Shown: positions 48 through 20,460 of the stretch, in pieces | How positions within the stretch are numbered: position 1 is the first letter of the stretch | Layout: every line of letters begins with the position of its first letter | Origin: a virus | Reading direction: 5' to 3' (one strand) | IMG/VR virus record: IMGVR_UViG_3300025324_000011 | Coordinates: 32,985 to 96,984 of that record | DNA length: 64,000 nt | The notes under the pieces: generated by a model | Databases searched by the model: none | The model's input: only the letters and a program-made list of their open reading frames with translations | Told to the model about the DNA's origin: nothing | Translations under genes and position numbers: made by a program

Positions 48-266
48 ATGGATCGCCGCCCATCCAATAAAGTTGCGATTGAATACAATGGCGGATTACC
101 GAGGTATAAGGATGAACCGCATTTGATCCGGGCAATGAATCAATCGCTCGGCGTTGAAATCGAATATCAATTCTTCGGCCCTACCGCCTCATACGGCAGG
201 GCATTGCGAGACGAGAGAAGGCGCCGCCTTGATTACGCTGGACAAGCGATCCATTCAAACGCTTGA
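48..266 (+). CDS. hypothetical protein, probably 5'-truncated by window edge
   Basis: Frame is open back to position 3; ends at the first composite promoter. Confidence 0.4.
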   Translation: MDRRPSNKVAIEYNGGLPRYKDEPHLIRAMNQSLGVEIEYQFFGPTASYGRALRDERRRRLDYAGQAIHSNA

Positions 267-379
267 ATTCAATCCCGTGGATTTTGTCCAACTAATTGAA
301 CCGAGAAGCTCTAGACATAGCGCTTGGCGCGACGTAGGCCACTATATCTAGTGTTGGCGCTGTTGGCACGGTGTCTGCA
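254..379 (+). promoter_or_regulatory. composite promoter copy 1: palindrome pair + tandem NrdR-like boxes + sigma54 -24/-12
   Basis: TTCAAACGCTTGAA 254-267; TCCAACTAATTGAA 287-300; GCTCTAGACATAGCGC 308-323; CCACTATATCTAGTGT 339-354; TGGCACGGTGTCTGCA with GG at 365-366 and GC at 377-378. Confidence 0.8.
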
Positions 380-484
380 AGAGATATGGAGTGCGAGGCC
401 ACACCATGAACACGCTTCTCCAAGGCACAGAGAGCGCGCGAGAGCGGCGATCAGCTCGCAGTTGCGTTCGGCTGGAAGTATGCC

Positions 485-529
485 TGAGCCCTGCGGGTAG
501 GGGACCCGGTCCCCTGCCCGGAGCACTCA
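485..529 (+). other. 45-nt interrupted hairpin (TGAGCCC...GAGCACTCA), member of a repeated family
   Basis: Inner stem CGGGTAGGGGA/TCCCCTGCCCG; same ends and length as 23677-23721. Confidence 0.55.
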
Positions 530-566
530 AGCGCAAGAGCAGGACGCACGAAGAGGAGACCGGACA

Positions 567-776
567 ATGACATATCAAATCACGCGGCACAGCGGGACAA
601 GAAAATTCACCTGGGCGTGGTGCAACACACTGGAGGAAGCTGTCAGAATTGCAAATTCTGTCAGCATAAAAATTGTAGGAGAGCTGACCATCGTCGACTG
701 CAACACGGGCAAAAGATTCACGATTGCTCAAGCGATTGCTCAAGCGCAGGCCCGGAAAGAGCAGCTCGGAGCCTAG
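567..776 (+). CDS. small hypothetical early protein
   Basis: GAGGAG RBS upstream, 69 aa. Confidence 0.7.
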   Translation: MTYQITRHSGTRKFTWAWCNTLEEAVRIANSVSIKIVGELTIVDCNTGKRFTIAQAIAQAQARKEQLGA

Positions 777-1050
777 AACGACAAACCACAAGGATACTCA
801 ACTACTTTGCCAGTAATCCTACAGGGCACACCACCGCTCTAGGACCAGTAGTGCAAAGACTGTTGCTCAACACCGACGGACAAGTGTTACTCATGGGTAC
901 ACTGTACGAGATCAAAACCGAGCATATTGGGGCAGGTGTTTACAAGTTATCACTTAGACCTTGGAAATAATAGGTCCAATGTCACTGCTGATCGTGGCGA
1001 TAACCTACATCTCGGTCTGTCGAACGACAAACCACAAGGAGGAAGGTACC

Positions 1051-15934: not shown

Positions 15935-17057
15935 ATGAGGTTCGCATCGGTTTGCTCGGGGTGCGGAGGGTTTGACCTTGGCCTTGAGCAAGCGGGCCTG
16001 CGATGCGTCGTACAAATCGAGATCAATAAGCAATGTTTCTCAGTTCTGGAAAAGCATTGGCCTTATGTTAAGCGGTTGAAAGATCTCTATGAGACGAAAG
16101 CGGAAGATCTTCCAGCCGTTGATGTTTTCGCAGGAGGAACACCCTGCCAGGATCTCTCGATTTCTGGACGCCGTGCGGGATTGGATGGAAGCGAATCCAG
16201 ACTCTTCTACGAATTCGTTCGCCTCGCTGATTCGCAGCCTGCCGCTGCGGTTCTCTGGGAAAACGTCCCTGGCGCTTTCACCTCCTCGGAGGGAGAGGAT
16301 TTTGCGATCATCCTCCGAGAACTCAGCGGATACTATCCTTCCGTCCCGATCGGAGGATGGAGAAATTCAGGCTTCTGCGTTGGACATTAAACGATACGTG
16401 CTCTGGCGCGTGCTGGACGCTCAATACTTCGGAATTCCACAGCGACGCCGTCGCGTCTTCGTTGTTGGATTGCCTCGAAACGGGGAGCGGGGAAGAATTC
16501 GAGGCGTACATCCAGAGATACTTTTTGACGAAACGAGCCTGCGCAGGCATCCTCCGTCGAGCCTTGAAAAGGAACAGACCGTTGCCCCATTACTTGGAGG
16601 AAGCCTTGGCGGCCACAGAATAGGAGCAGAAGAGGCGGCAGGCGGGCATCTAATTAGTCACACCGTCACCACCCGCAGCGGTATGCATCATGATCCAACA
16701 AGCGACACATTCATTGTCCATACCCTGACAAGTGAGGGGGCGGACGCGAGCGAAGACGGCACAGGACGCGGCCTTCCGCTTGTTCTCGGAACTCTCGCTG
16801 CCTCATACGGAAAACAAGCAGGGAGGGACTTCGAGGTGTCGGATAATTTGATCGTTGCTCGCCGTCGCGTCCGGAGGATAACACCGATTGAGGCTGAGCG
16901 CTTGCAGGGCTTCCCAGATCATTGGACTAAGCATGACTCGAACGGTCGGAAGTTATCGGATGCGTCACGCTATCGAATGATAGGTAACGCGGTAGCCGTG
17001 CCAGTCGCAAAATGGATAGGATCTCGTTTAATTCAAGCAGTGGAGGATTCGCAATGA
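15935..17057 (+). pseudogene. DNA cytosine-5 methyltransferase split by a +1 frameshift near 16388
   Basis: Motifs I, IV, VI (CSGCGG, GGTPCQ, WENV) in 15935-16390; WRVLDAQYFG, QRRRRVF, ERLQGFP and IGNAV in the +1 frame to 17057; removing one T from GGACATTAAACGA restores GHKRYVLWRVLDA. Confidence 0.85.
16357..16623 (+). CDS. nested alternative-frame polypeptide of the C5-MTase (M.EcoHK31I beta-like)
   Basis: TLNTSEFHSDAVASSLLDCLE...RYFLTKRACAGILRRA, a recognisable alternative-frame peptide of this MTase type. Confidence 0.65.
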   Translation: MEKFRLLRWTLNDTCSGACWTLNTSEFHSDAVASSLLDCLETGSGEEFEAYIQRYFLTKRACAGILRRALKRNRPLPHYLEEALAATE

Positions 17058-17383
17058 GACACGCTAGGCCAGTAGATCAAGAGCGATGGAATAGCCGCCT
17101 CGCGCGCCTACGCAAGATCCTAGAGATCAACGTCCCCGATGTTGTGATTGCGACCGAGGCTGGCCTAATCTTGGAGGCGTGGCACGGCAACAAATGGCGC
17201 CGAGCTTTCTGGTGCCTGCGCGATGCTACGCGGTGGGCTTTGTTGTGGCGGGTTATACTGCCGCTCGAAATCGGATCTTGCCGATTTTTCGGAATCCACA
17301 GTTGGGATACGATCGAAGAGGAACAATGTGACGGGAGTTTCGCCGCGATAGAGCGATGCTGTTTCTGCATGAAGGCTAGGTAG
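17054..17383 (+). CDS. hypothetical protein
   Basis: GGAGG RBS; ATGA overlap. Confidence 0.6.
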   Translation: MRHARPVDQERWNSRLARLRKILEINVPDVVIATEAGLILEAWHGNKWRRAFWCLRDATRWALLWRVILPLEIGSCRFFGIHSWDTIEEEQCDGSFAAIERCCFCMKAR

Positions 17384-17828
17384 ATTTCTTCCTCATCGAT
17401 TCAATCCTTTCCCGTAGCTCTTCGATCGTCGTTGCGCTATCCTCAAGGGATGCCTCAGCGAGATCAGCCCTAGTCCTAAGTTCCTTGACCTCTTCCTCGA
17501 GCAGAACGGCGTATTTGGCGCGCGGGCGAAGCTCTGCGACCTCTTCTCGCAGCGCCGCTAGTTGCGTTTCCGCCGCATCGAGTCTCGCCTCTAAGGTGGC
17601 TTGTCTCTTTTCGTACCTATCAAGTAATTGGCTGACTCGACCGAATTCCGATGTATCTTTAGCCGTAAGAACCTGCGTTTCCAACACAGCAGCATCTGCA
17701 ATCATCTTGCGAGCTTCTGGGCGACGAAACATAAAGGTACGAAGCAGGGCTAGCAGCGTGGCTAATCCACCTCCAGCGACTACGGACACGAGGACTGTAA
17801 CCCAGCCCGGGGTTGACGGTTCCGCCAC
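17376..17828 (-). CDS. single-TM + coiled-coil membrane protein (lysis-cassette type)
   Basis: N-terminal TM followed by heptad-rich helix; GTG start directly after the upstream TGA. Confidence 0.75.
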   Translation of the reverse strand: MAEPSTPGWVTVLVSVVAGGGLATLLALLRTFMFRRPEARKMIADAAVLETQVLTAKDTSEFGRVSQLLDRYEKRQATLEARLDAAETQLAALREEVAELRPRAKYAVLLEEEVKELRTRADLAEASLEDSATTIEELRERIESMRKKST

Positions 17829-18245
17829 TCAGGAATGCCTTGCTTTCTCGCGGTCTAGATCGATCATTAGGGTGCGGACTTTTTCAACCATCTCATCATA
17901 ATCACTCATCGCTTGGCGGATTGGCCGCACTGCGCGATGAAGCACAATGCCAGCAATAAGCGAGACAACCGCAGTCAAGATTAGCATTCCCGATTCGAGT
18001 CCGTAGTAGGGCTGGAAGATGACAACGACGCCAATCAAATGGGAGATCCCGCAGAAGGCGATGAATACCGATGCTAGCATCCATAGCGCAGGCTGCGGTA
18101 TTTTTGACTGCGATGAAAGAACTCTTACAATCGAAACGGGGATCCAGGTATAGGCAATAAAAATCAGGACGTTGCCTATGATGATAGCCCACAGAAGAAC
18201 TGGATCAGAAATACAAGATTCCCGAGCGATCGATAAAACTTCCAT
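17829..18245 (-). CDS. stand-alone ethylene-receptor-like (ETR1-type) three-TM ligand-binding domain
   Basis: GNVLIFIAYTWIP / FIAFCGISHL / LTAVVS match ETR1 SDFFIAIAYFSIP / FIVLCGATHL / LTAVVS; no kinase or GAF domain. Confidence 0.8.
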   Translation of the reverse strand: MEVLSIARESCISDPVLLWAIIIGNVLIFIAYTWIPVSIVRVLSSQSKIPQPALWMLASVFIAFCGISHLIGVVVIFQPYYGLESGMLILTAVVSLIAGIVLHRAVRPIRQAMSDYDEMVEKVRTLMIDLDREKARHS

Positions 18246-18263: not shown

Positions 18264-18530
18264 TTACGCTGGAGATCGGGGACGATTTCGCGTTACTGCG
18301 GCGCGGATGCCCCAGAGGCCCAGGGCAGTCGCTACCGCCTCACCGACCTTGTAAAGATCGAGGTCGCCTCGGAAGTAGCCGGCGAAGGCCAACGCCACCA
18401 GCGTGGCGACGGCGAGCAGGGTTTTCAAGCCCGGCAACGGATCGCTTGGAGTACCGAGCTTGATCCTGCGGCCTCGGCGAGGCTTGCCGAGGCCCTTGGG
18501 GAGATATGGCGCTGTTGGGTGGTGTGGCAT
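18264..18530 (-). CDS. putative holin (2 TM)
   Basis: GLKTLLAVA...LGLWGIRAAV; basic termini. Confidence 0.6.
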   Translation of the reverse strand: MPHHPTAPYLPKGLGKPRRGRRIKLGTPSDPLPGLKTLLAVATLVALAFAGYFRGDLDLYKVGEAVATALGLWGIRAAVTRNRPRSPA

Positions 18531-18533
18531 GGC

Positions 18534-18827
18534 TTAGAGCTCCTCGGGCGGCTCAAGATAGCCAAGATCGAAGATGATCTGCCGCAGCTCGCGTCGCACG
18601 GTGCGGTTCAACTCTACCAGGCGTTCCGAGGCAGCCTGAGCCTGCGCGGTGCCCTTTCGCGCTGCGGTCGGTTCGAGATCGAGCGGCAGGGGGCGGAGGC
18701 GGTCTAGCACCTTGGTGGCGGCCTCGAAGGAGATGCCGATTTCTGAGGCGAGGGCTCTTGCCGCTGCCGGCGGGGGGCAGCAGAGATACAGCCAGCAGCA
18801 CGGACTACCGAGCGACGATTGAGGCAC
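18534..18827 (-). CDS. hypothetical protein
   Basis: Fills the gap between membrane genes; likely GTG start at 18827. Confidence 0.45.
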   Translation of the reverse strand: MPQSSLGSPCCWLYLCCPPPAAARALASEIGISFEAATKVLDRLRPLPLDLEPTAARKGTAQAQAASERLVELNRTVRRELRQIIFDLGYLEPPEEL

Positions 18828-18832
18828 CCTTT

Positions 18833-19180
18833 CTATCCTCCCAGCTTCGCAAGTCCAGAGAAGACTCGGACATTGATCTGCTCTTGATTGGCCATCTTTT
18901 CCTCCATAACGGAGATGCGCCCACCGAGAGAGGAGACGCGCTCTTGGTATCGCACCAACTCCACGGTCGCCGTCTGATTGGCCGTTGTGGACTTCTCGAT
19001 CGCGGCCTGAAGCTCGCCAACCTTTGTCTCGAGACCGTTGAGCCGCATCGAGGCGACGCCGAGCAAAAAGATCCAGCCGACGACGCCCAAGATGACCCCC
19101 GGGCTGATCCACTGTTTGAGATATTCCATCGCTCGATCACCCATGGCGGTAGCCTCCTGCATGGACGGAGTGTCGCTCAC
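18833..19180 (-). CDS. single-TM + coiled-coil protein (lysis-cassette type)
   Basis: TM VILGVVGWIFLLGVA followed by coiled coil. Confidence 0.7.
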   Translation of the reverse strand: MSDTPSMQEATAMGDRAMEYLKQWISPGVILGVVGWIFLLGVASMRLNGLETKVGELQAAIEKSTTANQTATVELVRYQERVSSLGGRISVMEEKMANQEQINVRVFSGLAKLGG

Positions 19181-19553
19181 GGCCCTGCTGCCGCCCTGCG
19201 GCTACCCCTGGCCTGATAGAGGTGAACCGAGAAGGCCAAACCGAGGGCCAAGATCTCGGCGCCCCAAACGGTTGCCAGGAGAATGAGAAGATTTGCGGTC
19301 ACGTGGCGATGGCCCTCCGCAGCTTCAGGCCCTTCTCTTTGTCTCTAGTGAATCGAAAATACAGAAACACAGAGACGCAGAGCGCCACGGCAAGGGGTGC
19401 AACCACCCTGAGCATGGCGAAGTAGTGCACTGCCTCAGTAACATTCGGATGGATCATCGGATGAAATCCTCATTGCGGTTAAAAAAAGAGCCAAGGCGAC
19501 AACCGGAGGAGGAACGAAACCTTCGCCTTGGCTCTGTCGAAACCACCACTCTT

Positions 19554-19964: not shown

Positions 19965-20388
19965 CGGTCTCTATTCTAGAACCACTGCGGCGTTTGATGC
20001 AACCCGAAGGATGATGGGCAGTGATCGGACCCGCACTTAAAGCTCACTGCGTATTGAGCGATGTCTATCCACTTTTCCGAACCGCATCCGATATTCCTGC
20101 TCCATGTGCCAGCAGTTTCTCGCTCAGCTCCCTTACCTTATCCATCAACCACAGCATGGCCTCCCGTTCGCGAAGGTAGTGGCCGCAAGGGAGTCCGTTA
20201 TCTCTATTCCATGCAATCTTCCCGTTTAGCCATTGGACGCGAGTCAAGGTAATCTTGAATACCCCATCTTCATTGATTTGTAGGTAGGACCTCCGCCTCC
20301 CTCTTCTATCCGCTGAAGGCGCTCAGCTTGGCGCATCTTGTTTCGTTGGCGAGATGCAATGGACATGATGCAACCTCCGAAGTTGAAG

Positions 20389-20460
20389 TGGGGCCAGCAG
20401 GGATCGAACCTGCGACCATCCGCTTAAGAGGCGGCAGCTCTACCGCTGAGCTATGGCCCC
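20389..20460 (-). tRNA. tRNA-Lys (anticodon CTT), CCA not encoded
   Basis: GGGGCCA acceptor stem, GCTC/GAGC D-arm, CTCTTAA anticodon loop, GCAGG-TTCGATC-CCTGC T-arm. Confidence 0.95.

Follow-up and report, generated by a model that had tools for sequence, protein, structure and literature searches.

An ETR1_N membrane domain protein without an output domain in a small membrane-protein gene cluster of a phage

Results

A cluster of seven small genes

The window, the whole 64,000-nucleotide stretch of DNA analyzed here, comprises bases 32985–96984 of a 96,984-bp IMG/VR virus record whose completeness is rated 95%. Its minus strand carries tape-measure protein, tail tube, capsid, and portal genes. 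Two soil-metagenome runs contain the stretch in full and may be its source; no RNA run was listed among the sequencing runs that contain it. On the same strand, seven small genes are tightly packed from 19457 down to 17376, where the cluster terminates against a convergent plus-strand gene. Based on hydropathy and reading of the sequences, six of the seven products are membrane proteins. A tRNA-Lys(CTT) gene, located with ARAGORN (20388–20460, minus strand), lies upstream of the membrane cluster on the same strand, inside the leftward operon.

The cluster, all on the minus strand, opens with two single-TM peptides recognized from sequence and hydropathy: one of 52 aa with a basic tail (19299–19457), and one of 41 aa (19177–19302) whose start overlaps the previous stop. 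They are followed by a bitopic protein of 115 aa with a TM segment and a coiled coil (18833–19180; sequence and hydropathy), which has a weak PHROG match to an Rz-like spanin family (E = 0.0067). The fourth is a probable gene of 97 aa (18534–18827), read from the sequence with a GTG start behind a GGAGG site and a stop 3 nt ahead of the next start; its product has no TM segment. The fifth encodes a small membrane protein of 88 aa with basic N- and C-termini and one or two TM segments by hydropathy (18264–18530). The first-pass annotation of this DNA had described it as a two-TM, holin-like protein. A membrane protein it is, but the second TM segment is marginal, the resemblance to a holin is by shape only, and neither Pfam nor PHROG gave a match. 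The sixth gene (17829–18245, ATG start) encodes the 138-aa stand-alone ETR1_N protein that is the subject of this study, assigned from Pfam, AlphaFold2, and hydropathy. Its TGA stop (17831–17829) abuts the GTG (17828–17826) of the seventh (17376–17828; sequence and hydropathy), a bitopic protein of 150 aa with an N-terminal TM segment (residues ~9–29) and a long coiled coil.

The 97-aa product has an unusual Cys-rich N-terminus, SPCCWLYLCCPPP, containing CCWLYLCC, and an acidic C-terminus, and its gene is wedged among membrane-protein genes. It matched no Pfam family, and a reading of it as an o-spanin was dropped, as it has neither a signal peptide nor a lipobox. Elsewhere, the same record encodes PurA-like, poly(A) polymerase-like, RlaP, NADAR, SocA_Panacea, and DnaT_2 domains. 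A C-5 cytosine DNA methylase appears to be split between two overlapping plus-strand ORFs, 15935–16390 and 16089–17057. PF00145 was matched by two ORFs of the scanned set (best E = 3.5e-33), and allotting these matches to the two positions is a reading of methylase motifs in the translations. The split points to a frameshift or an assembly error, or else to an enzyme made of two parts.

None of the lysozyme, amidase, transglycosylase, or peptidase families of endolysins was recognized among the ~143 ORFs of the 97-kb record (Pfam, E ≤ 1e-4), and phmmer searches with the M15 and amidase enzymes of related loci gave no match in its six-frame translation. An upstream protein of 136 aa, considered as an endolysin candidate, had no Atlas match. 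The Pfam scan of the same ORFs at the same threshold recognized no large-terminase family either. The phage is divergent and up to 5% of its genome is possibly missing; therefore, an endolysin may escape recognition, and failing to recognize one is not equivalent to showing its absence. Because no endolysin family was recognized in the record, the cluster is lysis-like here by shape only. That label, given in the first-pass annotation, gains indirect support from the lysis genes that adjoin the domain in four other lineages, as described below.

The 138-aa protein is an ETR1_N domain and little else

Residues 17–107 of the protein align with positions 2–92 of the 97-position Pfam profile PF25487 (ETR1_N) at E = 1e-18; the score is 67.8 bits, where the curated cut-off lies at 27 bits. 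A six-frame search of the whole record returned this one ETR1_N match only (68.3 bits). The motifs IAYTWIP, FIAFCGISHL, and LTAVVS are all present, and the hydropathy profile has three peaks, one for each of three TM segments. The AlphaFold2 model, built from a 22-row alignment (mean pLDDT 85.9), places a short N-terminal helix ahead of helices at residues 15–43, 52–77, and 81–137, the last of which extends ~35 residues past the membrane with pLDDT above 90. This long helix (residues ~100–137) is conserved, and it is predicted to lie on the cytoplasmic side; an N-out/C-in topology is predicted from the charge distribution only. When the protein's ESM Atlas model is overlaid on ETR1_N domains from histidine kinases, the TM scores are 0.77–0.83. 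The open reading frame is a real gene, because relatives of 145–157 aa exist at 59–61% identity.

The chain stops 31 residues past the domain, and it contains no second Pfam domain: no GAF, PAS, kinase, or GGDEF. The product of 17829–18245 is thus a genuine member of the ETR1_N family that has no output domain. The three-TM architecture, the ethylene-receptor-type identity, and the missing output domain had all been proposed from the letters of the DNA, and the ORF list, hydropathy, structure prediction, and Pfam search bear them out, as they do the direct junction with the coiled-coil gene. The protein matched no PHROG family. By sequence, it matched no solved structure, and the solved chains include no ethylene-receptor membrane domain. 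Foldseek, run with the AlphaFold2 model against BFVD and PDB, returned nothing significant.

The metal-site residues are retained and those of the polar relay are not

Seven residues are reportedly required for ethylene binding, a set credited to Wang et al. in 2006: D25, Y32, I35, P36, I62, C65, and H69. The phage protein keeps six of these seven (Y32, I35, P36, I62, C65, and H69), and across helices 1 and 2 its residue numbers are the same as in ETR1. The exception is Asp25, the position of which is occupied by Asn (N25). Seven is also the number of required residues given in the literature (PMC11819568). The position equivalent to Lys91 of ETR1 is L88. This column is fixed by the His-to-Lys spacing of 19, which equals that of H79 and K98 in AzoEtr1 (numbering of PMC11819568), and a second line of support comes from the long fused relatives in the HMM alignment, where Asp stands at column 25 in 66 of 93 sequences and Lys or Arg at column 88 in 69 of 93. 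The retained Cys65, His69, Tyr32, Ile35, and Pro36 and the two substitutions therefore stand as they had been called from the sequence.

Conservation in the family centers on the same site. Across 22 short relatives, C11, Y32, F61, C65, H69, T91, and S95 are invariant, and in a broader set of 155 aligned non-viral relatives (44 short, 18 mid-length, and 93 long), C65, H69, Y32, and F61 never vary.

The effects of changing the two relay positions have been studied in ETR1. Among ethylene-binding domains, 93.55% have Asp at position 25 and 3.67% have Asn (PMC10266040). The D25N variant shows minimal copper binding in vitro and undetectable ethylene binding in yeast, and yet it keeps its signaling in planta (PMC10266040); its loss of affinity is ~100-fold (PMC11971883). 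The K91M and K91A variants bind copper normally but have ~1% of ethylene binding left, and D25N/K91X double mutants are impaired further (PMC10266040). With N25 and a hydrophobic residue at the Lys91 position, the phage protein is naturally in the double-mutant state. Because of N25 and L88, high-affinity ethylene sensing by this protein is unlikely, and ethylene, which the first-pass annotation had named among the possible ligands, loses ground in that form. Cu(I) is probably still held at C65 and H69, judging from the conserved residues. High-affinity sensing of ethylene keeps some probability, given that residues 1–130 of AzoEtr1 suffice for ethylene binding (PMC11819568) and that ETR1 with D25N works in planta (PMC10266040).

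Short stand-alone forms constitute a subfamily

An exhaustive phmmer search returned 3,211 representatives at E ≤ 0.001, and the best 12 were all 123–167 aa long. We aligned the best 150 relatives to an HMM and classed those below 200 aa as short and those of at least 300 aa as long. About a third of this set (44 of the best 150 of the 3,211 representatives) was short, although the selection is biased toward query-like sequences. In a FastTree phylogeny of 172 domains, the phage protein falls within a clade of 21 leaves (support 0.97), every member of which is shorter than 200 aa. The generalization that bacterial versions are normally fused to output domains, from which the first-pass annotation started, does not describe this part of the family.

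The short and long classes differ at both relay positions. Of the 44 short forms, 9 have Asp at column 25 and 29 have Asn, vs. Asp in 66 of 93 long ones (Fisher P = 4e-8 for Asp, kinship ignored), and Lys or Arg occupies column 88 in 4 of 44 (all four Lys) vs. 69 of 93 (Fisher P = 2e-13, kinship ignored). Short forms thus mostly do without the Asp25/Lys91 pair while keeping the copper ligands. We interpret the stand-alone forms as a coherent, old subfamily in which the metal site was kept and the relay to helix 3 was dropped. Membership of an all-short clade makes it less likely that the protein is a recently truncated host kinase.

Searches of IMG/VR, JGI metagenomes, and GTDB genomes with the protein, alignments of its close relatives, and the capsid protein as queries found no related loci save in one genome, a Candidatus Colwellbacteria MAG (CPR). 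There, two tandem proteins of 217 and 199 aa (L005:7854–9099, plus strand) each combine ETR1_N with a coiled coil; they have no output domain, and a tsaD-like gene adjoins them.

ETR1_N genes in other phages

To find viral members, a degenerate DNA motif was scanned over IMG/VR, encoding F-x3-C-G-x-[S/T]-H, then 21 residues, then T-A-x-x-S. It identified 21 loci, 19 of which contain a real ETR1_N ORF according to the short-family HMM (E from 1e-11 to 8e-44). Most of these viral ORFs are 103–231 aa long; complete sensor kinases account for two types, one of 479 aa and one of 371 aa. The former was seen at L012:5211–6650, L025, and L026, and the latter at L014:2860–3975 (L numbers denote our loci); as read from their sequences, one type combines PAS with a kinase, and a kinase of the HWE type is present in the other. 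On the viral contig L008, a stand-alone ETR1_N gene of 128 aa is followed, three genes downstream, by one for a stand-alone PAS protein (PF00989, E = 1.3e-15; 248–784, minus strand).

In the Atlas, the nearest clusters likewise consist of short ETR1_N proteins, with a viral share of 64% in one cluster. With three family members as queries, tblastn matched only the Maribacter phages Molly and Colly among 50,697 phage records. In our reading, the short ETR1_N subfamily is common in tailed phages. The literature that we searched contained no paper on phage-encoded ETR1_N proteins.

Lysis genes near the stand-alone domain

One check suggested for the lysis idea was the synteny of orphan domains in other phages, and it lends indirect support: in four independent lineages, a recognized lysis gene lies no more than two genes from a stand-alone ETR1_N. 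In Molly and Colly, an Amidase_3 endolysin (Molly gp066) is directly downstream of the ETR1_N gene; in Molly, gp064 (TM and coiled coil) overlaps the start of gp065 (ETR1_N, E = 1.5e-16). The closest viral relative, L007 (phmmer 1.3e-24), has the order TM and coiled-coil protein, TM protein, ETR1_N, TM and coiled-coil protein, and Peptidase_M15_4-VanY enzyme (E = 3e-10), an arrangement that mirrors the window with an endolysin-type gene added at its end. In L022, ETR1_N is followed by an overlapping gene for a coiled-coil protein with a C-terminal TM segment, and then by Phage_lysozyme (GH24) in two ORFs. L024 has a GTA_holin_3TM gene (E = 1e-18) 354 bp downstream of ETR1_N.

The lysozyme halves of L022 (3096–3524, minus strand) match profile positions 2–50 and 62–113, and possible causes of the split are a frameshift, a stop codon in frame, and an assembly error.

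Under a crude binomial model, lysis adjacency in 4 of 15 lineages has P of ~0.005–0.03. About 11 of the 15 viral loci have no recognized lysis gene within 3 kb, several of these loci being short fragments, and in L018 the pair of ETR1_N and coiled-coil genes follows a portal gene.

A recurrent coiled-coil neighbor

A coiled-coil partner is a more general regularity than adjacency to a lysis gene. A gene for a bitopic coiled-coil membrane protein touches or overlaps the ETR1_N gene in seven lineages (the window, L007, L011, L018, L019, L022, and Molly), and a coiled coil is fused to the ETR1_N domain itself in L018, L020, L027, and the CPR proteins. Relatives of the 150-aa protein in the window have 53–65% identity to it and share a conserved TSEFGRV..LLDRYE motif. 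One of these, P0158, has a longest contig of the same length (60,701 bp) as that of an ETR1_N relative, P0002, which suggests that the two genes are found together in a related phage. We infer from this coupling that the 150-aa protein (17376–17828) is a candidate partner of the ETR1_N protein. The first-pass annotation had suggested a split receptor made of the two; their pairing recurs, and their interaction is putative.

Pfam matches of the 150-aa protein are sub-threshold and of coiled-coil type (XhlA, 2e-4; DUF2730, ~1e-3 in relatives), and no enzymatic or DNA-binding output is recognizable in it by Pfam. The DUF2730, XhlA, and Rz-like assignments of the coiled-coil neighbors were rejected, since they were sub-threshold and stood among many generic coiled-coil matches.

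Discussion

A proposed accessory role in a late membrane module

Our preferred reading, which we hold tentatively and with slightly less than even confidence, is that the protein serves a late lysis or membrane module as an accessory membrane component and acts with its coiled-coil partner, rather than being a hormone receptor. It would insert into the inner membrane N-out/C-in, most likely as a dimer by analogy with ETR1, with the Cys that is invariant in short relatives (C11) on the periplasmic side. It would work jointly with the co-translated bitopic coiled-coil protein (17376–17828), and the pair may tune when or how the small holin-like proteins encoded upstream in the cluster (18264–18530, 19177–19457) permeabilize the membrane. 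The retained metal site could have a structural function, as a cofactor, or it could sense a cue that is soluble in the membrane. This cue might be redox status, copper status, or a small ligand, unsaturated or gaseous, for which the affinity would be far lower than that of ETR1.

A modulator of lysis timing was one of three roles put forward in the first-pass annotation, and it is the best supported of them, by virtue of the synteny in other phages. Several observations nonetheless count against an accessory lysis role. The 97-kb record contains no recognized endolysin family, most of the viral loci (~11 of 15) have no recognized lysis gene within 3 kb, and the L018 pair sits after a portal gene. 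The protein itself matches no holin family and no PHROG. The full ETR1_N kinases (L012, L014) and the PAS protein on L008 are more in keeping with sensing, and a purely structural part in lysis would leave the invariant copper ligands unexplained.

Those ligands also speak for a working sensor of copper or of a small ligand such as ethylene or another gas. As a split receptor that lacks a kinase, it would have the adjacent or fused coiled coil as its output and would feed a phage decision that need not be lysis. Six of the seven ethylene-binding residues are kept, ~130 residues suffice for ethylene binding in AzoEtr1 (PMC11819568), ETR1 with D25N still signals in planta (PMC10266040), and many short forms have coiled coils fused or adjacent to ETR1_N. 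Viral contigs that encode full ETR1_N kinases, one contig with a stand-alone PAS domain, and soil-metagenome runs that contain this DNA and point to a possible source also fit. Against these stand N25 and the hydrophobic residue at the Lys91 position, which in ETR1 mean ~100-fold lower affinity (D25N), ~1% of binding (K91M/A), and impaired signaling, as well as a partner that has no recognizable enzymatic or DNA-binding output. On balance, we consider such a sensor unlikely. A different membrane role altogether, such as superinfection exclusion, copper handling, or membrane remodeling, is a little less likely again: it would suit the many viral loci that have no recognized lysis gene nearby, the position of the L018 pair in a head-gene region, and the failure to find an endolysin in the phage of the window, but no positive evidence speaks for any of these functions, and lysis adjacency in four lineages exceeds the crude chance model.

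The ETR1_N protein may also be the holin itself, a class-I-like pore former with three TM segments and N-out/C-in topology derived from the ETR1_N fold. Its size, its three TM segments, and its charged C-terminal tail fit the class I shape, and the only membrane proteins adjoining the Molly endolysin are gp064, with its TM segment and coiled coil, and the ETR1_N protein gp065. We nevertheless find this improbable, as no family match was obtained (Phage_holin_3_6, E = 0.28; no PHROG) and holin folds in BFVD matched with E ~1 only. In addition, L024 has a canonical GTA three-TM holin besides its ETR1_N, the window has other small holin-like genes, and the invariant Cys, His, and Tyr within the helices indicate a cofactor site that holins do not need. 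Least probable of all, and in our judgment very improbable, is the decoy suggested in the first-pass annotation, in which the protein would form mixed dimers with an ETR1_N sensor kinase of the host and block or distort host signaling during infection. The N-terminal, dimer-forming Cys and the TM bundle are conserved, and truncated dominant receptor forms exist in plants. However, its closest relatives are not host kinases but further short proteins, grouped with it in an all-short clade, and there is divergence at the positions coupled to the output helix.

A further reading is that the ETR1_N protein and its coiled-coil partner form a copper-based lysis clock gated by a ligand or by redox state. 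By binding to the Cu(I) site or altering it, a membrane-soluble cue would shift the time at which the holin fires; the cue might be ethylene or some other small molecule that is unsaturated or gaseous, but also copper itself, oxygen, or redox state. We regard this as a speculative idea with a distinctly low chance of being correct. If it were true, soil and marine phages would time lysis to an environmental or metabolic signal.

Implications

To our knowledge, the ethylene-binding domain has so far been described only as an input module for signaling, in proteins from plants, cyanobacteria, and a small number of other bacteria. A subfamily in phages that has no output, keeps the copper ligands, and has lost the Asp25–Lys91 relay would represent a different use of the fold. 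Should it control lysis, the holin and antiholin repertoire would gain a component that carries a cofactor, with a possible coupling of lysis to a chemical cue. These natural minimal domains of ~130 residues could also be convenient material for structural work on the ethylene-receptor membrane domain, which has not been solved.

Comparison with known systems

The protein shares several outward features with class I holins and antiholins such as lambda S105/S107: it is small, has three TM segments in the inner membrane and a charged cytoplasmic tail by prediction, and is encoded in a tightly packed cassette like those of late genes. Lysis accessory proteins such as XhlA of PBSX are comparable in that coiled-coil membrane partners occur in the same cassette. 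Unlike holins, the phage protein contains conserved metal-ligand residues, and it has no sequence similarity or significant fold similarity to holins or to XhlA.

Molly gp065 (YP_010357114, hypothetical protein) is also a phage ETR1_N with no signaling domain, coupled to a gene for a TM and coiled-coil protein. It differs in its length of 289 aa, which includes a C-terminal extension of 160 residues, and in its place directly upstream of an Amidase_3 endolysin. The two proteins are 31% identical over 87 residues, with Gly in gp065 at the position of Thr68.

With ETR1 and ERS1 of Arabidopsis, SynEtr1 of Synechocystis, and AzoEtr1 of Azospirillum, the phage protein shares the same three-helix domain and the same residue numbering for Y32, I35, P36, I62, C65, and H69. 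It also resembles these receptors in having a conserved, putatively periplasmic Cys before helix 1 and a helix 3 that continues into a long helix predicted to be cytoplasmic. In contrast to them, it has no output domain, carries Asn25 and a Leu at the Lys91 position, belongs to a clade made up of short proteins, and is encoded among genes for small membrane proteins.
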